From contig JAMCWS010000257.1 in assembly GCA_023480605.1 (NCBI GenBank), forward strand, positions 1-14,135: a stretch of 14,135 nt of DNA, written 5' to 3'. The DNA is from a bacterium. GTDB lineage: Bacteria > Sumerlaeota > Sumerlaeia > MVZB01. Shown one piece after another: positions 484-10,112 of the stretch (positions are counted from its first letter, which is position 1; each line of letters begins with the position of its first letter). A program made the position numbers and the translations under genes. Below the pieces are notes generated by a model. It was not told where the DNA came from and searched no databases. It was given only the letters and a program-made list of their open reading frames with translations.

Positions 484-1542
484 ATGAACTCCCGGGAACG
501 ATTACTCGCCATTCTCGATCGCCGGCCCGTCGACCGGATGCCCGTCGATCTATGGTATACGCCCGAAATTTACACGGCGTTGGCCGGGCATTTCGGCGTG
601 CAAGAACCCACGGCCCTGTGGAAAGCGCTGGGGCTGGACAAGCTGGCCTGGGTCAACGCGCCCTACAAGGGACCGCGCGCCCCCTTCGGCGAAGGAGAGG
701 CGGTCAATGAATGGGGCGTGCGCACCAAAACGGTCCAAGCCGGCATGGCCGAATACGGCGAACGGACCACGCCCCCCCTGGCGGGCTTCGATACGCCCGA
801 GGCGGTGGCCGACTATGCCTGGTGGCCCGACCCCGACCAGTTCGATTACGACTGGGCGGTCCGGTACGCGCGGTCGGTCAACGGCGATTTCCTGACGCTG
901 GGGCCGTGGGTTTCGTTCTTCGAGATCTACTGCGCCATGCGGGGGCTTGAACAATCCCTCATCGACGTGCTGATCGCCCCCGACCTGGTCGACGCCGTCC
1001 TCGACCGGATCGAGGAATGCCAGACGGCGATGATCCGTCGTTTCCTCGACCGGGCGCAAGGGGCGGTGGACCTGATGTTTCTGAGCGACGACATGGGCAG
1101 CCAGAAAAACCTGCTCGTTTCGCTCGAAACCTGGGACCGTTTCTTCAAGGACCGGATGAAGCGCTGGTGCGACCTGGCCCATTCGTACGGCGTCAAGGTC
1201 TTCTACCACACCGACGGCGCGGCCGGCGAGCTGGTGCCGCGCCTCATCGAGGCCGGCATCGACGTGCTCAACCCCATTCAGCACGTCTGCCCGTCGATGG
1301 AGATGGCCGTCCTCAAGCAGCGCTACGGCGGGCGGATCATTTTCCACGGCGGGGTCGAGAACCAGTCGGTCCTGCCCTTCGGCACGGCCGACGACGTCCG
1401 CCGCGAGACGCTCGATTGCCTGCGAACGCTGGGCGCGGGCGGTCAGGGATACATCGCCTGCTCGTGCCACAACGTTCAGGCCGGCACGCCGGTCGGCAAC
1501 GTGCTGGCGATGGTCGAGACGGTGCGCAACTGGAAGTGGTAG
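484..1542 (+). CDS. Uroporphyrinogen decarboxylase (URO-D) family protein; could be a HemE or an MtaA/CmuA-like methyltransferase paralogue, exact function unassigned
   Basis: 352-aa ORF with a good Shine-Dalgarno sequence. N-terminus RLLAILDRRPVDRMPVDLW matches the URO-D family N-terminal motif (HemE has RQPVDVTPVWMMRQAGR). Length and the downstream DxxxE/HTDG-like segments (FYHTDGAAGEL) fit the URO-D TIM-barrel family. High GC at third-codon positions. Confidence 0.8.
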   Translation: MNSRERLLAILDRRPVDRMPVDLWYTPEIYTALAGHFGVQEPTALWKALGLDKLAWVNAPYKGPRAPFGEGEAVNEWGVRTKTVQAGMAEYGERTTPPLAGFDTPEAVADYAWWPDPDQFDYDWAVRYARSVNGDFLTLGPWVSFFEIYCAMRGLEQSLIDVLIAPDLVDAVLDRIEECQTAMIRRFLDRAQGAVDLMFLSDDMGSQKNLLVSLETWDRFFKDRMKRWCDLAHSYGVKVFYHTDGAAGELVPRLIEAGIDVLNPIQHVCPSMEMAVLKQRYGGRIIFHGGVENQSVLPFGTADDVRRETLDCLRTLGAGGQGYIACSCHNVQAGTPVGNVLAMVETVRNWKW

Positions 1543-2280: not shown

Positions 2281-3816
2281 ATGAAAAGCAGGTTCAGACA
2301 CGGTGCTGCATTTTTGGGCGGGGCGATTTCCATGCGATTTCGGCGGCTTACGTTTCTTCTGCTCGGCGGTCTGCTGATCCTGGCGGCGGGGGATAGGACG
2401 TATCGCCCGCCGGCGCTGGCGGCCCCGGCCGTCGCGCCGACTCCGACCGTCGCGGAAAAAGACTCCGCGCCCGGCCGCGTCGACCTGATCGTTCTCGACA
2501 ACCAGATTATCAGCCCCGTCACCGAGAATTACATCGACTCGGCCATCGCCCGCGCCGAGGACGAGGGAGCCGTCTGCCTTGTCATTGAACTCGACACCCC
2601 CGGCGGGCTGCTCGAGTCGACGCACACGATCGTCCGCAACATTCTGAACGCGCGCGTGCCGGTGGTCGTCTACGTCGCTCCGTCGGGGGCGCGGGCGGGA
2701 TCGGCCGGAGTGTTCATCACCCTGGCGGCGCACGTGGCCGCGATGGCCCCCTCGACCAACATCGGCGCCGCCCATCCGGTGACGCTCGATGGCGGCGGGG
2801 ATTTCCGGAAGTTCTTCTCGCCGGGGGGCGAGAGGCCGGGCGCCCGGAGCGCCGACGACGCGACCACCGGCGGCGCCACCGCCCCGGGGGGCGAGCGCTA
2901 CGCCAACCCGATGAGCGAGAAAATCGTGAACGACACGGTCGCATGGATCACGGCCATCGCCCGTCTGCGCGGCCGCAACGAGGCCTGGGCGCGCCGGGCC
3001 GTCACCGAAAGCGTCTCGGTGACCGACGAAGAGGCCCTCAAGGAGCATATCGTCGACTTCATCGCGACCAATCTGAATGACCTGCTCGCCAGGCTCGACG
3101 GCCGCCCGGTGAAACTTCCCACGGGCGTCATCACGCTGCACACGGCCGGCGCGCGGGTGGTCTCCACGCCGATGGGCCTGCGCCAACGTTTCCTATCGGT
3201 CATCGTCAATCCCAACGTCGCCTACCTGCTCATGATGCTCGGCGTGCTGGGACTCATCTTCGAGTTTACCCATCCCGGCATCGGTTTCCCGGGCATCGCC
3301 GGCCTCATCTGCCTGCTGCTGGCGCTCTATTCCTTCCAGACGCTGCCGGTCAACTACGCCGGCTTCGCCCTCATCCTGCTGGGCCTGGTGATGCTGGTGG
3401 CCGAGATCAAGATCATGAGCCACGGCCTGCTGGCGCTGGGCGGCATCCTGTCGCTCGTGCTGGGCAGCCTGATGCTGTTCGAGGAGCCCGGCTCGGGCAT
3501 CCGCGTGTCGCTGGGGATCGTCATTCCGGCCGTCGGAACGTTGGCCGCCATCGTGTTGTTCGTGGTCCACCGCGCCGTGGGCAGCGTCATGTTTCCGGTG
3601 GCCACGGGCGCCCAGGAACTGGTGGGGATGACGGGGCACGCCGCGACGGATCTTTCGCCGCGCGGCACGGTGTTCGTGCACGGCGAGTTGTGGGCGGCGC
3701 TGGCCACGGCCCCCGTCGGCAAGGGGCAGCCGGTGCGCGTGCTGCGTGTGGAAGGCTTGCGGCTCACGGTGGAACCGGCCGACCATGAATCGACCGCCGG
3801 TGAGAAGCAAAAGTAA
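2281..3816 (+). CDS. nfeD: NfeD family membrane-bound serine protease, long form: ClpP-class protease domain, multi-pass membrane region and C-terminal OB-fold. This is the stomatin operon partner protein.
   Basis: N-terminal signal/transmembrane segment (RLTFLLLGGLLILAAG). The ClpP/crotonase-like domain reads VDLIVLDNQI...VCLVIELDTPGG...VPVVVYVAPSGARAGSAGVFITLAAHVAAMAPSTNIGAAHPV. Four or five transmembrane helices follow. The C-terminal beta-barrel has the typical NfeD signature (GMTGHAATDLSPRGTVFVHGELWAA...GQPVRVLRVEGLRLTVEP). The start could be GTG 2272, ATG 2281 or ATG 2332. A Gly/Pro-rich low-complexity insert (GGGDFRKFFSPGGERPGARSADDATTGGATAPGGE) lies in the protease domain. Confidence 0.88.
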   Translation: MKSRFRHGAAFLGGAISMRFRRLTFLLLGGLLILAAGDRTYRPPALAAPAVAPTPTVAEKDSAPGRVDLIVLDNQIISPVTENYIDSAIARAEDEGAVCLVIELDTPGGLLESTHTIVRNILNARVPVVVYVAPSGARAGSAGVFITLAAHVAAMAPSTNIGAAHPVTLDGGGDFRKFFSPGGERPGARSADDATTGGATAPGGERYANPMSEKIVNDTVAWITAIARLRGRNEAWARRAVTESVSVTDEEALKEHIVDFIATNLNDLLARLDGRPVKLPTGVITLHTAGARVVSTPMGLRQRFLSVIVNPNVAYLLMMLGVLGLIFEFTHPGIGFPGIAGLICLLLALYSFQTLPVNYAGFALILLGLVMLVAEIKIMSHGLLALGGILSLVLGSLMLFEEPGSGIRVSLGIVIPAVGTLAAIVLFVVHRAVGSVMFPVATGAQELVGMTGHAATDLSPRGTVFVHGELWAALATAPVGKGQPVRVLRVEGLRLTVEPADHESTAGEKQK

Positions 3817-3822
3817 GACGAT

Positions 3823-3859
3823 GCGGCGTGAATGGTGGCAAAGCCACCATCCACGCCGC
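3823..3859 (+). terminator. Very stable intra-operon stem-loop (17-bp stem, AAA loop) directly after the nfeD stop, with no U-tract
   Basis: GCGGCGTGAATGGTGGC (3823-3839), AAA, GCCACCATCCACGCCGC (3843-3859) gives 16 of 17 complementary positions with one A/C mismatch. It begins 7 nt after the TAA at 3814-3816. No T-run follows. It is therefore either a processing or stability element, a partial attenuator, or a U-less intrinsic terminator of the kind common in GC-rich genomes. Confidence 0.5.
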
Positions 3860-4071
3860 GCCGGGCGTTGCGGAAAACGTCCTGAAACGAGACGCCGAGA
3901 CCGCCTGGACGCGACACGTCCGGGAGATTCAAAATCGTCGAACCGAAGAAAGTCATCGATCGCTACCGGGCCAATGACCCCCGGCAAGAAAGGAGGACCA
4001 ATAAGAACGTCAGCGTCAAGCGAGCGGGTAAAACGGGCTGCGCGATTCTCCTGGCCTTCACCATCCGGCTC

Positions 4072-4734
4072 ATGCCGGGGGTGGGCCGGGCGCACTGCGA
4101 CACGATGGATGGGCCGGTCGTCAAGGATGCCCGCAAGGCGCTCGAAAACGGCGACGTGACGCCCGTGCTCAAGTGGGTTCAGCCCAAGGACGAGGAAGCG
4201 ATTCGCGCGGCTTTCCAGAAAACGCTGACGGTCCGGGCCAAGGGGCCCGACGCCTGCGATCTGGCCGACCAGTATTTCTACGAGACACTCGTGCGGCTGC
4301 ATCGGGCGGGCGAGGGCGCGTCGTTCGAGGGACTCAAGCCGGCGGGAACGAAACTGGAGCCCGGCGTCGAGGAGGCCGACGCGGCCCTGGAGAAGAACAC
4401 GGAGGACGAATTGGTCAAAGTGGTGACGGCGGTGGTGGCCGCGGGCATCCGCGAGCGCTTTGAGCTAGCCGCCGAAACCCGAAGGAGTGCGAGCCAAAGC
4501 ATTGAAGCCGGTCGCGAGTCGGTCGAGGCGTATGTCCTTTTCGTTCACTCCGTGGAACGCCTGATGGCCGACGCCGCCGGAACGCCGGCCCATCACGGCG
4601 CGGAAGGTTTCGAGGCCGGCGATTCCGGACCGCATCACGAAGCGGCGCCGGCGGCCGGGCATTCCCACGAGGAAGCCGCGCCGCCCGCCGATCGCTCAAC
4701 CGGAGAGAAAACCGCTGCAATTGAAAAACACTGA
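4072..4734 (+). CDS. Hypothetical protein with a conserved-looking N-terminal domain (HCDTMDGPVV...) and a His/Glu/Ala/Pro-rich C-terminal tail. Possibly secreted, with an unresolved N-terminus.
   Basis: 220-aa ORF from the first ATG. The frame is open upstream to the stop at 3883-3885. The upstream in-frame translation KRAGKTGCAILLAFTIRLMPGVGRA|HCDTMDGPVV looks like a signal peptide (positive n-region, hydrophobic core, a GRA-H cleavage-like site), but there is no ATG/GTG/TTG in that stretch. The stop TGA 4732-4734 overlaps the Shine-Dalgarno sequence (GAAGGAG) of the downstream SPFH gene, indicating translational coupling. The C-terminal tail HHGAEGFEAGDSGPHHEAAPAAGHSHEEAAPPADRS resembles a metal-binding His-rich tail. 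Third-codon GC is high. Confidence 0.6.
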   Translation: MPGVGRAHCDTMDGPVVKDARKALENGDVTPVLKWVQPKDEEAIRAAFQKTLTVRAKGPDACDLADQYFYETLVRLHRAGEGASFEGLKPAGTKLEPGVEEADAALEKNTEDELVKVVTAVVAAGIRERFELAAETRRSASQSIEAGRESVEAYVLFVHSVERLMADAAGTPAHHGAEGFEAGDSGPHHEAAPAAGHSHEEAAPPADRSTGEKTAAIEKH

Positions 4735-4746
4735 AGGAGCGCGCGC

Positions 4747-5556
4747 ATGATTCCCGAAAGCATGTTCGTCGTCATCATCCTGATCGTTTTCTACCTGACC
4801 AACTGCATCAAAATTCTCAAGGAATACGAACGGGGGGTGATCTTCCGGCTGGGGCGGCTGCGGCCCGAGCCGCTGGGGCCGGGCCTCAAGGTCATCATCT
4901 GGCCCATCGACCGGCTGGTGCGCATCAGCCTGCGGATCGTAGCCCAGGACATCCCGCCGCAGGACGTAATCACGAAAGACAACGTGTCGATCAAAGTGAA
5001 CGCCGTCCTTTACTTCCGAGTGATCGACCCCAACCGGGCGGTGGTGCAGGTCGAGGATTTCCTTTACGCCACGTCGCAAATCGCCCAGACGACACTGCGG
5101 TCGATCCTGGGCCAGGTGGAGTTGGACGAACTGCTGGCTCACCGCGAGAAACTGAACCTGCAACTTCAGGAGACGATCGACGCCCAGACCGACCCGTGGG
5201 GAATCAAGGTGACGGCCGTTGAGACCAAGCAGGTGGATCTGCCCGACGAGATGCGCCGGGCGATCGCCCGCCAGGCCGAAGCCGAACGCATCCGCCGCGC
5301 CAAGGTCATCGGCGCCCAGGCGGAGTTCCAGTCGGCCCAGCGCCTGATCGACGCGGCCGAGATGATGGAGCGTCATCCCATCTCGCTCCAGTTGCGCTAC
5401 CTTCAGACCCTGGCGGAGATCGCGACCGAGAAGAACTCGACGACGCTTTTCCCGATCCCCATTGACCTGATTCAGCCTTTTATCGAAAAGTTCGCCGGCG
5501 TTAAAAAAGTGGCCGATGCGAACCCGGGGAAGGTGACCGAAGCCAACGGCGAGTAG
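4747..5556 (+). CDS. SPFH/band-7 domain protein of the stomatin/slipin family
   Basis: N-terminal membrane anchor ([15 protein letters not shown]). The canonical SPFH core reads [18 protein letters not shown]...[34 protein letters not shown]...TLRSILG and is followed by a coiled-coil region ([26 protein letters not shown]). Strong Shine-Dalgarno sequence GAAGGAG 7 nt upstream. It lies downstream of nfeD as in the classical NfeD-stomatin operons. Confidence 0.9.
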
Positions 5557-5897: not shown

Positions 5898-7061
5898 ATG
5901 TCCGAATCATATACGTTGATTTCCGACCGTAAAGATCTTGATCCCCTGCTCCTTGCGGTCGCGGCGCACGACACGGTCGCACTCGACACCGAAGCCGACA
6001 ACCAGCACCATTATCGCGAAAAGCTCTGCCTCCTGCAGTTTACCGTCGGCGGACGCAACTGGATCGTCGATCCGCTTGCCGGGCCCGATCTCGAATCCCT
6101 GATGGGCCTGCTCGCCCGGCGCGAGTTGCTTATCCACGGGGCCGATTATGACCTACGGTTGCTTTACCGGACATATCGTTTCCGGCCGGAACGGGTGTTT
6201 GACACCATGCTGGCGGCTCAGTTGCTCGGACGGCCGCAGATTGGCCTGGCCGCGCTGGTGGGTGAGATCTGCCAGGTCAATCTTTCCAAACATGCCCAGC
6301 GCGCCGATTGGTCACGGCGGCCGCTGCCGCCCGAGCTTTTGGCCTACGCGGCCGACGACACTCGTTACCTGGGGCGCGTCGCGGCCGCCATGCGGAGGGA
6401 ACTGGCGCACGCCGGGCGCCTGCCGTGGCACGCCGAGAGCTGCCGCCGCACGGTCGCCGCGGCTGGCCATATCCGCCAGTCGCTTCCCGAGGACCCCTGG
6501 CGGATCAAGGGCGGCAAACACTACACCGGACGGGCGGCGGCCGTTTTACGCGCGCTCTGGCACTGGCGCGAGGAAGTCGCGCGTCGCAACGACCGTCCCC
6601 CATTCAAAATCGCCCGGCCGGATTTTCTGCTCGAATGGGCGGAATGGGCGGCCGGGCATCCCGACGCCGGGTTCGAAGACGCCCCGACCCGGCCCGCCTG
6701 GTTGCACGGCGCGCGTTTGCACGCGTTCGACTCGGCCCTTGAGCGCGCGCTCGCTATGCCCGCCGAATCATGGCCGGCGTCCGTTCCCCCTCGGCATGGA
6801 TCGCGACTGAGTCGTGACCAGGAAACCCGGTTAAAAAGTATTTTGGCCAGGCGGGATGCGCTGGCTCGCGATTTACGACTCGACCCCGGCGTGCTGGGCT
6901 CGCGCGATGTGCTCAAAGAGTTGATCCTGGGATGTGCGGCCGATTCGCGACCGCCTGACCACGAAGCATATGCGCATGCTGGCTTGATGGAATGGCAAAT
7001 CGAGTTGTTGCGGCCGTTAATCGAGCCTCTGCTGGAGAGAGCCGACACTGTGGATCAGTGA
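5898..7061 (+). CDS. rnd: Ribonuclease D: DEDDy 3'-5' exonuclease domain plus HRDC domains
   Basis: Exo I motif in VALDTEADNQHHYREKLCLLQF. Exo II in LIHGADYDLRLL. Exo III (YxxxD) in YAADDTRYL. The C-terminal helical HRDC-like region is about 200 aa, and the length (387 aa) matches RNase D. The ORF track starts at 5805, but the ATG at 5898 (AAGGA 10 nt upstream) begins the conserved N-terminus (MSESYTLISDRKDLDPLL). Confidence 0.85.
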   Translation: MSESYTLISDRKDLDPLLLAVAAHDTVALDTEADNQHHYREKLCLLQFTVGGRNWIVDPLAGPDLESLMGLLARRELLIHGADYDLRLLYRTYRFRPERVFDTMLAAQLLGRPQIGLAALVGEICQVNLSKHAQRADWSRRPLPPELLAYAADDTRYLGRVAAAMRRELAHAGRLPWHAESCRRTVAAAGHIRQSLPEDPWRIKGGKHYTGRAAAVLRALWHWREEVARRNDRPPFKIARPDFLLEWAEWAAGHPDAGFEDAPTRPAWLHGARLHAFDSALERALAMPAESWPASVPPRHGSRLSRDQETRLKSILARRDALARDLRLDPGVLGSRDVLKELILGCAADSRPPDHEAYAHAGLMEWQIELLRPLIEPLLERADTVDQ

Positions 7062-7669
7062 TTGGGTACCGGCGCCTCGTGAAGCATCCGGTTCATTTGA
7101 ACCAGTGTTTTGTTGAGCTCGAGCGCCGCTCTTTCCCAACCTTCGCCGGGGGTCGATTTGAACGCCGTCAGGCTGGTTTGCGCATCATTGGCCATCGGTT
7201 CAAGTTTTCGCAGCAGCGCTTCCAGACGTTCCTTGCGTGTCGGTGGCGAATTGCGCGCTTCTTCCGCGAGTTTGTCCATCTGAACGCGATAGAACTGTAG
7301 CAACTTGGTCTTTTGCTTTTCGAATTCCGCTTTACGCCGCAATGAATATTCGTAGCGAGTGGCGGCCGTCAACACCGGGGTCCGGCGCACGTGGGCAACC
7401 AGGGGCGACCCGGGCGTGGTTGGCCGAAGCATTTCGGGCAGCGGCTTGGCGCGTCCGGATTCGACTCGGCGCGTCGCGTTGTTATTGTCGCATCCAGTCA
7501 GAAGCCACAAGACCGCCAGGCATGCGATCAACGCGATCGTTCGCGCCCTTTGATCCGGTTCCGTCCACGATCGGTTGTGTCGTTGGGCAGTCTGTCGTGA
7601 CGTCAAGCTACAGGAAATTCTCGTGTACCGCCTATCCAATAACAAAACATTGTTTTTTTTCGTCACCAT
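7055..7669 (-). CDS. Putative lipoprotein with a coiled-coil C-terminal region. It has a lipobox (LLTGC) and an unusually long (~40 aa) basic N-region.
   Basis: Minus-strand ORF of 204 aa. The segment RARTIALIACLAVLWLLTGC-DNNN is a typical lipoprotein signal peptide with the lipobox cysteine. The C-terminal half is heptad-like (KAEFEKQKTKLLQFYRVQMDKLAEEARN...LEALLRKLEPMAN). Its 3' end overlaps rnd by 7 bp in convergent orientation. The competing + strand ORFs 6992-7300 and 7237-7773 are Arg-rich shadow ORFs. Confidence 0.6.
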   Translation of the reverse strand: MVTKKNNVLLLDRRYTRISCSLTSRQTAQRHNRSWTEPDQRARTIALIACLAVLWLLTGCDNNNATRRVESGRAKPLPEMLRPTTPGSPLVAHVRRTPVLTAATRYEYSLRRKAEFEKQKTKLLQFYRVQMDKLAEEARNSPPTRKERLEALLRKLEPMANDAQTSLTAFKSTPGEGWERAALELNKTLVQMNRMLHEAPVPNH

Positions 7670-7872
7670 TGGTTAACAACCGTTTTTGCCTTGGAATCCT
7701 GATCAACGATAGGTTACGCCATCGCATGGCACACGCCATTAAAAAATCGTATCAGCGTGGCGGTCGGCTGTGAATAGGATGCTCTGGCACGATCCTCGCC
7801 GCCCTCTCTCAATATAAGCTAACCTAAGCCAAATTAAGAATATCTATTTTATCCACAGGTTGCCCCTATCAT

Positions 7873-7884
7873 TGTGAATAACTC
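7873..7884 (+). repeat. Direct repeat copy A, TGTGAATAACTC (12 bp). Identical copy at 8006-8017. Shorter TGTGAATA/TGTGAATg copies at 7769-7776 and 8194-8201.
   Basis: Exact 12-mer identity read from the sequence. This gives four TGTGAAT occurrences within about 430 bp, with spacings of 104, 133 and 188 bp. Confidence 0.7.
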
Positions 7885-7925
7885 GGTGGAAGCAAATATT
7901 TTTCGGCCTTCCAATAGAGTGATTT

Positions 7926-7945
7926 ATATCATAGATATATGATAT
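7926..7945. promoter_or_regulatory. Perfect inverted repeat ATATCATA-gata-TATGATAT; candidate operator or regulator-binding site
   Basis: 8-bp arms are exact reverse complements with a 4-bp spacer. It sits in the centre of the AT-rich island, between TGTGAATAACTC copies A and B. Confidence 0.4.
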
Positions 7946-8005
7946 TATTACAGATACACAACTGGACGGTCAATCAAGTCTTTCGCGAGTCGGCCAAGCC
8001 CGGGA

Positions 8006-8017
8006 TGTGAATAACTC
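8006..8017 (+). repeat. Direct repeat copy B, TGTGAATAACTC
   Basis: Identical to 7873-7884. Confidence 0.7.
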
Positions 8018-8414
8018 TCATCCGATCATGCACTGCGTAATCGCATCGATACAAGGCTCATATCGCGACTTTGAGGAGACCACCGAATCGGGAAATCCCC
8101 GGTTCTCCCCTTTTTTTTATCCACATCTTATCCCCCCATCGCCGTCCATTCCCAGCACCATTTCCCCGACTTCCAATCGATCCATGCGGGACCTGTGAAT
8201 GGCGGAGCGATTTATTAAGCTTTTGTTAAGGCATACACATGGTTGCCACATATGAATTTAACAGGCTTTTCCACAGTATTCAGCTCCCTACGACGATGAC
8301 TTTATATCACAACTTCCCTACAAGTCATATCATTCGTCGCACGGCGATCTCATCCCTCGTCCGCCGGAGGCCGATACGACATCGAGAAACCTTCGACGCG
8401 ACAAGCGACCGAGA

Positions 8415-9467
8415 ATGGCAATGTATACAATATATCGGATGGTTTTGATTCTTTTTGTGTTGATGCTTACTTTGGCCGCGGCCGAGGGGGGGGCGCCAGT
8501 TGCTCCCCCAGCGGAAAGCGTTGTTGTACCACGATTTGCCGTAACGCTGACCCGTGAGAATAATATGCCTTCCTCGCTTCTTCTTCAAATACGGCAGAAT
8601 GGCGAGTTGGACTCGGTCGAATCGGTGGCCGACCTGCTGATTTGGTGGACGACTCCCTCGGGTTTGCGGAGGGCGATGATCATTAAACCGGTGGCGCGCG
8701 GGATCTGGGCCAACGGGATCGACCCAGGGCCGGAGACCGGATTGCATTCAGTGCGCATTTTCGCGATCATTGAGTCGCTCGACCGGCCGGTGAGTCGCGT
8801 GATTGACGAATCGTATACGGTCGAACTGCCGCAACTGTCCGTTCTCCATGGCGATGAGACCATTGTTTTTACGTCCAATACGTCGGGCGATCAATTGCGT
8901 CCGCCACGCGGAGCGAAAACCGAATCCGATAAAAAGATGGGGTATGGCGCCATTGTTGTTCAAATTGCGTTCGGCGCTCTTCTTATTATGCTGATTGGGT
9001 TGGGAGGATTCGTTTTCATCACTCGTCTGCCGCTGCGCCGACGCGTGGGAGGCGTTTTCGCCGCGATGGGCCCCCGGCCGGTAGAGTTGCCACGACTATC
9101 GGCGCAAAATTCTCTGGCTCAGGATGTTCCGGGCAGTGTTGGTGACTCGGCGGCCGAAATTGAGAATGCGGGTCCCGCTCCAGCGGAAAAAGCGAAGGAT
9201 TTCAACGAAGAGGCCGATTTATCGAATCAAGCCGACGTAACGGAAGCCGCTCATTCCCAAAACGAAACGGATTCCGAATCGTCCTCTGATTTAAACGTAT
9301 CGCAAAACCTTCCGGAATCCGGCGCGGATGGCGAAGTGCCAGGAGATGAGGAAGAGGATGCGCCGGCGGCGGCGGCGGCCGCGGAACCGGACGCCGCGCC
9401 TAAAGCCAGCATCGACGCGCGTGATAACGATGACCGCCGCTTCGATCCCAACGACTTGAGTTTCTGA
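8415..9467 (+). CDS. Hypothetical type I single-pass membrane protein: signal peptide, ~190-aa ectodomain, one transmembrane helix and an acidic disordered cytoplasmic tail. Compositionally atypical, so probably horizontally acquired.
   Basis: The N-terminus MAMYTIYRMVLILFVLMLTLAAAEG is a signal peptide. The transmembrane helix is YGAIVVQIAFGALLIMLIGLGGFVFI, followed by RLPLRRR (positive-inside). The C-terminal ~150 aa are rich in D/E/S/A (EEEDAPAAAAAAEPDAAP...). GC is about 55%, and codon choice (frequent A/T-ending codons such as att, gtt, ttg, aat) differs from the ~68% GC neighbours. Confidence 0.6.
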   Translation: MAMYTIYRMVLILFVLMLTLAAAEGGAPVAPPAESVVVPRFAVTLTRENNMPSSLLLQIRQNGELDSVESVADLLIWWTTPSGLRRAMIIKPVARGIWANGIDPGPETGLHSVRIFAIIESLDRPVSRVIDESYTVELPQLSVLHGDETIVFTSNTSGDQLRPPRGAKTESDKKMGYGAIVVQIAFGALLIMLIGLGGFVFITRLPLRRRVGGVFAAMGPRPVELPRLSAQNSLAQDVPGSVGDSAAEIENAGPAPAEKAKDFNEEADLSNQADVTEAAHSQNETDSESSSDLNVSQNLPESGADGEVPGDEEEDAPAAAAAAEPDAAPKASIDARDNDDRRFDPNDLSF

Positions 9468-9566: not shown

Positions 9567-10112
9567 ATGGATAAAGAACAGCTTCTTTCGATCGGCCGGC
9601 CGCAAAAGATCTGCATGAACTGCAACGCGCCGCTCAGCGTCCTCGAACGTCACCCGAGCATCCTCAAAACCGCACCCAGGAACAGCCTCGAACGTCTTGA
9701 CTACTGCCCCGACTGCTGGCAGCAGATGAAAGACGAAGCCTACGAATCGTTCTGGATCACGCACCGCGTCCCCAAGGAACGCAAGATCCGCCTGACGCGC
9801 AAGGAACGCAGCGCCGCCCTGCGCGTGCTGTTCGAGTCGCTCTGGGACCGGCGCGAAACCGAGGATGTCGGCCCGCACCTCTATTTTTTGGCTCACCTGC
9901 TTATGAAATGGGGCGGGCTTAAGTGGAAGGAAAACCTGAACGACGCACGGGGCGGCGAGGTCGTTGTTTTCGAGGACCCCGCCACGGGCGACCGTATCGA
10001 GCTTGCCGGCGTCGACATCGCCGATGAACGCATGACGGCCATCCAGGGCGAGATCGAGGAATTCCTCCACCAATATGCTCCCGAGGACGACGAGTCGACG
10101 CTCGGAGCCTGA
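9567..10112 (+). CDS. Hypothetical cytoplasmic zinc-ribbon protein (CMNC-x26-CPDC)
   Basis: 181-aa ORF with high third-codon GC. The antisense 237-aa ORF 9492-10205 is a shadow. It has an N-terminal C4 motif and no transmembrane segment. I do not recognise a known family. Confidence 0.6.
   Translation: MDKEQLLSIGRPQKICMNCNAPLSVLERHPSILKTAPRNSLERLDYCPDCWQQMKDEAYESFWITHRVPKERKIRLTRKERSAALRVLFESLWDRRETEDVGPHLYFLAHLLMKWGGLKWKENLNDARGGEVVVFEDPATGDRIELAGVDIADERMTAIQGEIEEFLHQYAPEDDESTLGA

Follow-up and report, generated by a model that had tools for sequence, protein, structure and literature searches.

A conserved cluster of DnaA boxes as the probable chromosomal replication origin of an uncultivated, probably Sumerlaeota bacterium

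Background

That bacterial replication origins are built of DnaA boxes, the sites for the replication initiator, is textbook knowledge. In Escherichia coli oriC, phased TTATNCACA boxes in both orientations stand with an AT-rich unwinding element, away from dnaA, and promoters of the flanking genes lie at the edges. In Bacillus subtilis, the incC basal unwinding system (BUS) comprises tandem DnaA boxes 6/7, DnaA-trios and an AT-rich 27-mer (PMC6669920, PMC8287927). In a BUS, a DnaA box that deviates from the consensus at no more than two positions, and is usually one of a co-oriented tandem pair, is joined by a spacer of up to 16 bp to a run of three or more NAN trios on the 5'-tail strand, the trio consensus being 3'-GAT-5' (PMC8287927). 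Here we describe an intergenic island in a 14,135-bp contig of a metagenome-assembled genome (MAG), JAMCWS010000257.1, which was analysed whole and is called the window below. The island carries a phased array of such boxes and is probably the chromosomal replication origin (oriC) of an uncultivated, probably Sumerlaeota bacterium. That it is a conserved multi-site region predicted to bind DnaA is close to certain.

The island resembles E. coli oriC in each of the respects just named, and the likeness extends to the boxes themselves. The extended consensus over 25 strong boxes is A(20/25) G(15/25) TTATYCACA G(21/25). The E. coli box R4, AGTTATCCACAG, is identical to this consensus, AG-TTATYCACA-G, including the flanks, and R1, GTTATCCACAGG, is close to it; both were verified in the actual oriC sequence between mnmG/gidA and mioC. 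Beyond the boxes there is no homology, and box number, box order and neighbouring genes differ. The 13-mer GATC-containing repeats of the E. coli duplex unwinding element (DUE) are absent from the island, and there is no evidence here of Dam/SeqA control. The E. coli origin is experimentally proven, whereas the island is a predicted one.

Results

The island differs sharply in composition from its surroundings, with 41-51% GC in a composition scan compared with about 63% for the contig, and the open reading frame (ORF) map places it between genes that diverge from it, at 7055-7669 (-) and 8415-9467 (+). A preliminary description, made from the letters of the window, had recognised an AT-rich island between divergent genes and had drawn attention to TGTGAATA repeats within it. 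Both observations hold: the window has TGTGAAT at four positions only, 7769, 7873, 8006 and 8194, and the exact 12-mer TGTGAATAACTC is present at 7873-7884 and 8006-8017. The repeats are DnaA boxes. Read on the opposite strand, TGTGAATAA becomes TTATTCACA, a sequence in perfect agreement with the DnaA-box consensus TTATNCACA; the 12-mer is an extended DnaA box present twice, and the first and fourth TGTGAAT copies are the degenerate boxes CTATTCACA and CCATTCACA. The repeats had been described as direct throughout, which is incorrect, as the same motif is also found inverted at 7849, 8117 and 8267; the first two of these are perfect boxes, TTATCCACA, that had been overlooked. The earlier suggestion of an iteron-like array or multi-site regulator-binding region was thus sound in that the array serves one DNA-binding protein, and fell short in leaving the DnaA box and the origin-type element unrecognised.

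The number of boxes is far beyond chance expectation. A search of both strands of the window found perfect TTATNCACA sites at 7849 (+), 7873 (-), 8006 (-) and 8117 (+), all of them in the island. These four sites compare with 0.07 expected for the window (a count reached in none of 200 shuffles) and with 0.039 expected from the composition of the island itself (none of 2000 island shuffles). As a bare 7-mer, TGTGAAT is only modestly enriched (4 versus 0.87 expected; 3 of 200 shuffles reach four). Between 7769 and 8275 there are 11 DnaA boxes with two mismatches or fewer, comprising four perfect boxes, two with one mismatch and five with two mismatches. The island and its numbered boxes are as follows.

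7670..8414, no strand: whole intergenic island, candidate oriC; 745 bp, 47% GC versus ~63% for the contig, from the ORF map and composition
7769..7777, (-): box 0, weak DnaA box CTATTCACA, 1 mismatch; an aligned weak box with 1-2 mismatches lies 79-81 bp before box 1 in 4/4 relatives
7849..7857, (+): box 1, perfect DnaA box TTATCCACA; position and orientation kept in all relatives
7873..7884, (-): box 2, perfect DnaA box TTATTCACA (7873-7881) with extended flank; copy 1 of the 12-mer
8006..8017, (-): box 3, perfect DnaA box TTATTCACA (8006-8014) with flank; copy 2 of the 12-mer
8117..8136, (+): box 4, perfect DnaA box TTATCCACA (8117-8125) with a tandem weak site TTATCCCCC (8128-8136); kept in 5/5 lineages
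8194..8202, (-): box 5, degenerate in the window, CCATTCACA, 2 mismatches
8267..8285, (+): boxes 6 and 7, a weak co-oriented tandem pair, TTTTCCACA (8267-8275, 1 mismatch) followed by TATTCAGCT

Box 2 converges on box 1, with a 15-bp spacer between them. The counterpart of box 5 is perfect in three of the relatives introduced below (L015, L016 and L017) and has one mismatch in the fourth (L138), and box 7 (TATTCAGCT) is a decayed copy of the nTTCACAG found in the relatives.

To place the island in an evolutionary context, it was compared with those of four related contigs, L015, L016, L017 and L138, which are probably also Sumerlaeota. These share with the window a right-hand block of genes encoding a variable membrane protein, a 181-aa protein (59-71% identical to that of the window), a GT4 glycosyltransferase and a DnaJ/TPR protein, and in each of the four a gene-free gap of 0.9-2.4 kb lies upstream of the block. 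At this syntenic site all five lineages carry a seven-box array with the orientations - + - - + - +, in conserved order and with start-to-start spacings of about 80, 24, 133, 89, 76 and 81 bp. The individual values are:

box 0 to box 1: window 80 bp; relatives 79-81 bp
box 1 to box 2: window 24 bp; relatives 23-24 bp
box 2 to box 3: window 133 bp; relatives 132-133 bp, except L138, 144 bp
box 3 to box 4: window 111 bp; relatives 88-89 bp
box 4 to box 5: window 77 bp; relatives 76 bp
box 5 to box 7: window 83 bp; relatives 80-82 bp

The sole deviations in spacing among the five lineages are +11 and +22 bp, or about one and two helical turns, suggesting that the rotational phasing of the boxes is under selection. 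The longer distance between boxes 3 and 4 in the window arises because the relatives have a gap where the window alone has a segment of ~22 bp. When the islands are aligned, the conserved parts are boxes 0-7, a sigma-54-like element, the AT-rich spacer between boxes 2 and 3, the C-rich spacer between boxes 4 and 5, and a terminal module at the right end. A palindrome in the AT-rich spacer, a hairpin at 8085-8118 and a TTAA-N7-TTAA site are not conserved in the aligned relatives. The preliminary description would have been refuted had close relatives kept the region without its repeats; the opposite is seen, in that the repeats are the most conserved part.

Perfect boxes are also exclusive to the islands in the DNA sampled: 22 lie within the ~4.8 kb of the five islands, versus none in ~159 kb outside them from the same or related lineages. 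The left flank is different in all five lineages, and the island stays joined to the right-hand block; in every lineage its immediate neighbours diverge from it. A more distant homologue of the 181-aa gene (L139, 55% identity) is found in another context without a box cluster, indicating that the right-hand operon does not need the boxes. An attempt to establish synteny through RNase D was abandoned, as relatives at 40-59% identity share neither the neighbourhood nor a box cluster.

A near-identical tRNA-Lys(CTT) gene lies at the left edge of the island in three of the relatives, on the minus strand in each (L015 5559-5634, L016 6237-6312, L017 7426-7501). The window and L138 have neither this tRNA nor a remnant of it. 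Just past the tRNA-Lys gene, L017 carries phage-like genes (Terminase_2, HTH_17), which suggests that a prophage integrated at or near it.

Two stretches of low duplex stability and a short periodic array complete the candidate origin:

7913..7962, no strand: AT1, least stable duplex of the contig and candidate unwinding or bending element; 13% GC in 7921-7950; holds the palindrome 7926-7945
8289..8300, (+): three-nucleotide periodic array, DnaA-trio-like, TAC GAC GAT GAC in the window; 3 bp downstream of the tandem boxes
8301..8337, no strand: AT2, second low-stability AT-rich stretch, after the periodic array; holds the second copy of TTTATATCA; alternative unwinding site

Nearest-neighbour stability was calculated over the whole contig. 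AT1, which lies between boxes 2 and 3, has the lowest stability at segment lengths of 30, 50 and 100 bp, and in each relative the corresponding spacer is one of the four segments of lowest stability. AT2 ranks 5th or 6th in the contig, and its equivalent ranks 1st to 3rd in L138, L015 and L017; it is overlapped by a promoter-like site (8306-8333) for the downstream gene. Several features in and between these stretches had been reported in the preliminary description and are reproduced here. The perfect inverted repeat (8+4+8) ATATCATA-GATA-TATGATAT at 7926-7945 is real, and it is incidental to AT1; a role as a functional hairpin was rejected, the structure being weak (-5 kcal/mol, z = -1.5) and its sequence not conserved. 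The motif TTTATATCA does occur twice, at 7923 and 8301. The C/T-rich tract at 8100-8190, pyrimidine-rich on the plus strand with a GC skew down to -0.28, is the conserved C-rich spacer from box 4 to box 5.

At its right end the island has one and the same succession of elements in 5/5 lineages: a tandem pair of weak boxes, a periodic trinucleotide array and an AT-rich stretch. Tandem box pairs are present in all relatives, and the spacer from the second box to the array is 1-4 bp. The arrays of the relatives read:

L017: TAC TAC GAT GAC GAT GAT TAT AAA CAA
L138: TAT GAT GAT GAT GAT GAG TAT TAA GAG
L015: TAC TAC TGC GAT GAT TAT AAG
L016: TAC TAT GAC

The possibility that a conserved small ORF begins in the GATGA array was considered and rejected: an ATG is present there in each lineage, but the encoded peptides share nothing. 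The likeness to the B. subtilis BUS lies in the co-oriented tandem boxes, the short spacer, the three-nucleotide periodic element and the AT-rich stretch. In the window, box TTTTCCACA at 8267 and the decayed second box lie within the range of the array that a BUS allows, and the distal AT-rich region is represented by 8301-8337. The two systems differ in strand: the A-centred trios of B. subtilis are on the TGTGGATAA strand, whereas the best-conserved A-centred trinucleotides of the island (TAC, GAT, GAC) are on the TTATCCACA strand. They differ further in that the tandem boxes of the island are weak (1-3 mismatches) and do not lie beside dnaA-dnaN. Judged on sequence, the terminal layout resembles a BUS, short of established membership.

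The conserved element next to box 0 resembles a sigma-54 -24/-12 promoter and points into the box array:

7785..7799, (+): TGGCAC-N5-TCGC, sigma-54-like, 8 nt after box 0

Its counterparts begin at 5875 in L015, 6561 in L016, 7733 in L017 and 7354 in L138, and over the five islands the element reads TGGCAY-N5-TYGY (GG-N10-G[C/T]). In the 5/5 aligned islands TGGCA, together with a later T and G, is invariant. A loose sigma-54-like pattern occurs 12 times in 164 kb, compared with 4.4 occurrences expected, and five of the 12 are the island site. At -12, three lineages have 'GT' in place of 'GC', an unusual variant among sigma-54 promoters. We regard the element as a putative promoter and, like the non-canonical strand of the array, as a lead and not a finding. 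Genes for a sigma-54 activator and a response regulator lie directly left of the L016 island, and L015 has a sigma-54 activator gene 9 kb to the right.

Other sites in the island appear to be peripheral:

8085..8118, (+): GC-rich 8-bp hairpin followed by T8, resembling an intrinsic terminator; in or next to the ~22-bp segment unique to the window
8215..8229, (+): TTAAGCTTTTGTTAA, CtrA-type TTAA-N7-TTAA; a single match, in no relative

The T-run of the hairpin overlaps the first two bases of box 4, and no plus-strand promoter was found upstream of the hairpin. The hairpin falls at a gap in the relatives and is therefore probably outside the core element. The TTAA-N7-TTAA site is judged to be a chance match, also outside the element. 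Promoter-like sites were detected at 7973-7944 (-) and 8306-8333 (+). The hemE-proximal, CtrA-regulated origins of the Caulobacter type (Cori) have in common with the island that DnaA boxes lie in an AT-rich island away from dnaN. An alphaproteobacterial CtrA-controlled Cori was nevertheless rejected for the window: the lineage is not alphaproteobacterial, the uroporphyrinogen decarboxylase (URO-D) family gene of the contig is MtaA/CmuA-like, and the lone TTAA-N7-TTAA is not conserved.

Annotation with Pfam and NCBIfam gave, to the left of the island and in order, genes for an MtaA/CmuA-like URO-D protein, NfeD, DUF6448, SPFH, RNase D and a small lipoprotein-like protein (-). On the right are genes for the fast-evolving membrane protein, the 181-aa protein with two CxxC motifs, the GT4 glycosyltransferase, the DnaJ/TPR protein and a SASA esterase. 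The same annotation found no dnaA, dnaN, parAB, mnmG or rep gene in the window, and ARAGORN found no tRNA. The nearest named relatives of two window proteins are from Candidatus Sumerlaeia and Sumerlaeota, with GTDB representatives of the Verrucomicrobiota more distant. Exact matches to window proteins were found only on Logan contigs of 1.5-2.7 kb from SRR10267473.

Several neighbouring genes have unusual features. The URO-D-family gene at 484-1542 (+), 6 kb from the island, is nearer to MtaA/CmuA methylcobamide methyltransferases than to hemE, scores well below the family cut-offs and is odd for the lineage; it is no origin marker. In the gene string at 2332-5556 (+), DUF6448 is inserted between the usual partners NfeD and SPFH/Band-7. 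The convergent genes for RNase D (+) and the lipoprotein-like protein (-) end at 7061 and 7055, respectively, and their stop-proximal ends share 7 bp, 7055-7061. The lipoprotein-like protein resembles the sll1863 stress-response family weakly and below threshold, and the annotated ATG of its gene, at 7669, probably lies upstream of the real start.

The first gene to the right of the island (8415-9467 (+) in the window, 6589-7761 in L015, 7190-8374 in L016) encodes a signal-peptide/transmembrane protein with a long, acidic, low-complexity tail. Its products are 23-25% identical between lineages whose adjacent genes share 60-70%, an unusually fast evolution, and its GC content is below that of the rest of the contig. 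The 181-aa protein (9567-10112 (+)) has 61 homologues, all in Sumerlaeota-like genomes, and its gene lies 1.1-3.4 kb from the island in the five lineages. Four cysteines, C16, C19, C47 and C50, form a zinc-ribbon-like motif and are invariant, as are W51, W63, H110 and W115. The AlphaFold model is confident (pLDDT 84). A link to replication was sought through the fold, and Foldseek returned no PDB match below E = 0.1.

Discussion

Operational criteria for recognising oriC have been set out for Ori-Finder/DoriC (PMC10225481). By these, the window contains an intergenic cluster of DnaA boxes of the TTATCCACA type (four perfect boxes versus 0.07 or 0.04 expected) and AT-rich candidate unwinding elements in or by the cluster, AT1 and AT2, whose positions are kept in the relatives. 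The surroundings are those of a chromosome, with housekeeping genes on contigs of 84-223 kb (L015-L017) and 98 kb (L138) and no rep gene. Taken together, the number, quality and phasing of the boxes, the two AT-rich elements, the unwinding-type terminal module, the exclusivity of the boxes, the chromosomal context and the divergent flanks are best explained by a chromosomal origin.

A scan of metagenomes for a three-box geometry points in the same general direction. It returned at least 120 loci in 56 sequence families, with no relatives of the window among the matches listed. Among these matches, the families most common in the 119 nearest flanking ORFs were DnaA (9), DnaN (8), YidC (8) and LptF/LptG (8), followed by Jag/R3H/KH (6-7), RecF-like (3) and ParB (2). 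This tally indicates that such clusters are predominantly classical origins, with a sizeable share located by other genes. One family with 39% GC (L116 and 42 similar loci, among them L018, L020 and L030) accounts for 43 of the at least 120 matches listed. It has nine perfect DnaA boxes, at the fixed offsets -226, -216, -204, -79, -69, 0, +23, +143 and +156, and in L116 a SPOUT methyltransferase gene is the nearest ORF on one side. The family presumably represents the origin of an abundant bacterium, many of its contigs being from gut or fermentation metagenomes.

Several observations weigh against an origin. A further Ori-Finder/DoriC criterion, an adjacent indicator gene, finds no counterpart: dnaA, dnaN, recF, gyrB, yidC, jag, mnmG, parAB and hemE are all absent from the contig and from the 10 kb around the island in the four relatives. 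An indicator gene is not a universal companion of origins, however, and E. coli oriC likewise is not beside dnaA. GC and GC3 skew show no consistent switch in flanks of 6-14 kb (14-20 kb per lineage), a scale at which skew is uninformative; the Ori-Finder/DoriC criterion of this kind, a position at the genome-wide minimum of GC disparity, calls for whole replichores. In the window, six of the seven genes on the left side are directed towards the island and would meet a leftward fork head-on. Boxes 5 and 7 are degenerate in the window genome. The trio rule, too, is poorly satisfied. Its canonical orientation, 5'-(NAN)n-spacer-TGTGGATAA-3', was taken from the '5'-tail' statement (PMC8287927) and cross-checked on E. 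coli R1 and the DUE. Next to boxes 6/7 the window has a single in-frame trio (CTA, top strand) and fails the rule. Runs of 3 in L015, 3 in L016 and 5 in L138 barely pass, and the run of 2 in L017 fails; runs of three are common by chance in such AT-rich DNA. On the opposite strand the adenine periodicity is better conserved, and its runs reach 4 in the window and 9-10 in L017 and L138. Finally, clusters of DnaA boxes that are not origins are known, namely E. coli datA, DARS and the DnaA-box clusters of B. subtilis.

These last loci suggest the alternative that deserves most attention: a conserved DnaA locus that is not an origin, serving titration or control of the nucleotide state (of the datA, DARS or DnaA-box-cluster type) or forming a divergent promoter region controlled by DnaA. 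We consider it unlikely, but a real contender. The island resembles datA, DARS and the B. subtilis clusters in having several DnaA boxes, in being intergenic and away from dnaA, and in being conserved among relatives; sequence homology to them is neither expected nor found. The absence of indicator genes from the 10 kb around the island in all five lineages, the lack of a skew switch in the flanks and the constant attachment of the island to the same downstream operon would all suit such a locus, as would the promoter-like sites inside the island at 7973-7944 (-) and 8306-8333 (+) and the conserved sigma-54-like element. The operon, however, does not require the boxes, as the L139 copy of the 181-aa gene shows, and with no perfect box in the ~159 kb outside, the island is the dominant cluster in the sampled DNA. 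Moreover, seven phased boxes over ~520 bp with two AT-rich segments and a box-adjacent array make up an unwinding-type layout, for which a titration or promoter site has no need. The function of these non-origin loci depends on IHF sites and a specific box geometry, and neither datA and DARS nor the B. subtilis clusters are known to join their boxes to an unwinding-type module.

Two further readings are highly improbable. Plasmid origins typically have short motifs repeated in an AT-rich island, and L017 has its phage-like genes (terminase, HTH) to the left of the island, so that the origin of a plasmid, chromid or integrated element, with iteron-like repeats and auxiliary DnaA boxes, might be proposed. 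This idea is largely refuted. Neither the contig nor its relatives carry a Rep, Par or relaxase gene; the neighbours are of the housekeeping kind (RNase D, release factor, pyrF, accA, GT4, DnaJ/TPR) on contigs of up to 223 kb; and no similarity was found among 72,556 plasmids and 50,697 phages. Iterons of a plasmid origin would be tandem and of 17-22 bp, whereas these repeats measure 9-12 bp, are dispersed in both orientations and stand 24-133 bp apart; an iteron plasmid origin was rejected on these grounds. In L017 the phage genes lie on the far side of the tRNA-Lys gene, a type of site at which integration is common, and none of the other lineages has them. The remaining candidates, all raised in the preliminary description, are a non-coding RNA locus, the scar of a miniature inverted-repeat transposable element (MITE) or other mobile element, and a foreign AT-rich insertion under xenogeneic silencing. 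An AT-rich island in a GC-rich genome, a terminator-like hairpin and a downstream gene that is lower in GC and evolves fast are what could be said for them, and the comparisons lend them no support. No Rfam family matches the window even at E <= 1, the hairpin and palindrome are not conserved, and what is conserved is a set of 9-12-mers of the protein-binding type with their spacing, not a foldable transcript. A MITE should have terminal inverted repeats, a target-site duplication and multiple dispersed copies. The best inverted pair here, with 15-nt arms of 80% complementarity, does not bound the island, and in the five lineages the island is found once per locus, at a single syntenic site. 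Ancestral and syntenic in those five lineages, the island belongs to the conserved features of the lineage and is not a foreign insertion.

If the island is the chromosomal origin, its anatomy suggests how it might work. DnaA would bind the high-affinity boxes 1-5 as a phased scaffold. ATP-DnaA would then fill the weak tandem boxes 6/7 and oligomerise onto the adjoining periodic array, and an AT-rich segment would melt. On the model of the B. subtilis BUS, AT2 is the favoured site for this step; AT1 would be the other choice. The replicative helicase would be loaded there, and two forks would leave in opposite directions, co-directional with the immediate divergent genes.

A bolder proposal is that the Sumerlaeota origin departs from the textbook module both in the opposite-strand adenines of its array and in sigma-54-type transcription into the boxes; that the two hold jointly is improbable. 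Should the array prove to act on the opposite strand, the DnaA filament would form on the other strand, or on the same strand with reversed polarity. If a sigma-54 promoter beside box 0 fired into the array, the opening of the origin would be coupled to signalling through enhancer-binding proteins.

Conclusion

In the library searched, no paper names both Sumerlaeota and oriC, and nothing relevant was found on Sumerlaea together with origin terms. Some specialist interest attaches to the location away from dnaA/dnaN, the seven-box architecture, the non-canonical strand of the array and the sigma-54-like element. There is also a practical lesson for scans of this kind: where TGTGNATAA and TTATNCACA cluster in an AT-rich island, DnaA boxes should be the first reading, ahead of more exotic ideas. 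As an origin away from dnaA/dnaN with a trio-like array off the canonical strand, the island would offer a modest but concrete test of the generality of the BUS. If the island is oriC, the five lineages would constitute a natural experiment on the phasing of DnaA boxes, in which only shifts of +11 and +22 bp have been tolerated. The origin would lie apart from dnaA/dnaN, by tRNA-Lys and a conserved glycosyltransferase/DnaJ block. It would provide a landmark for orienting and closing MAGs and for growth rates estimated from coverage (the peak-to-trough ratio), and it would give the position and anatomy of the replication origin for a globally distributed, uncultivated phylum.

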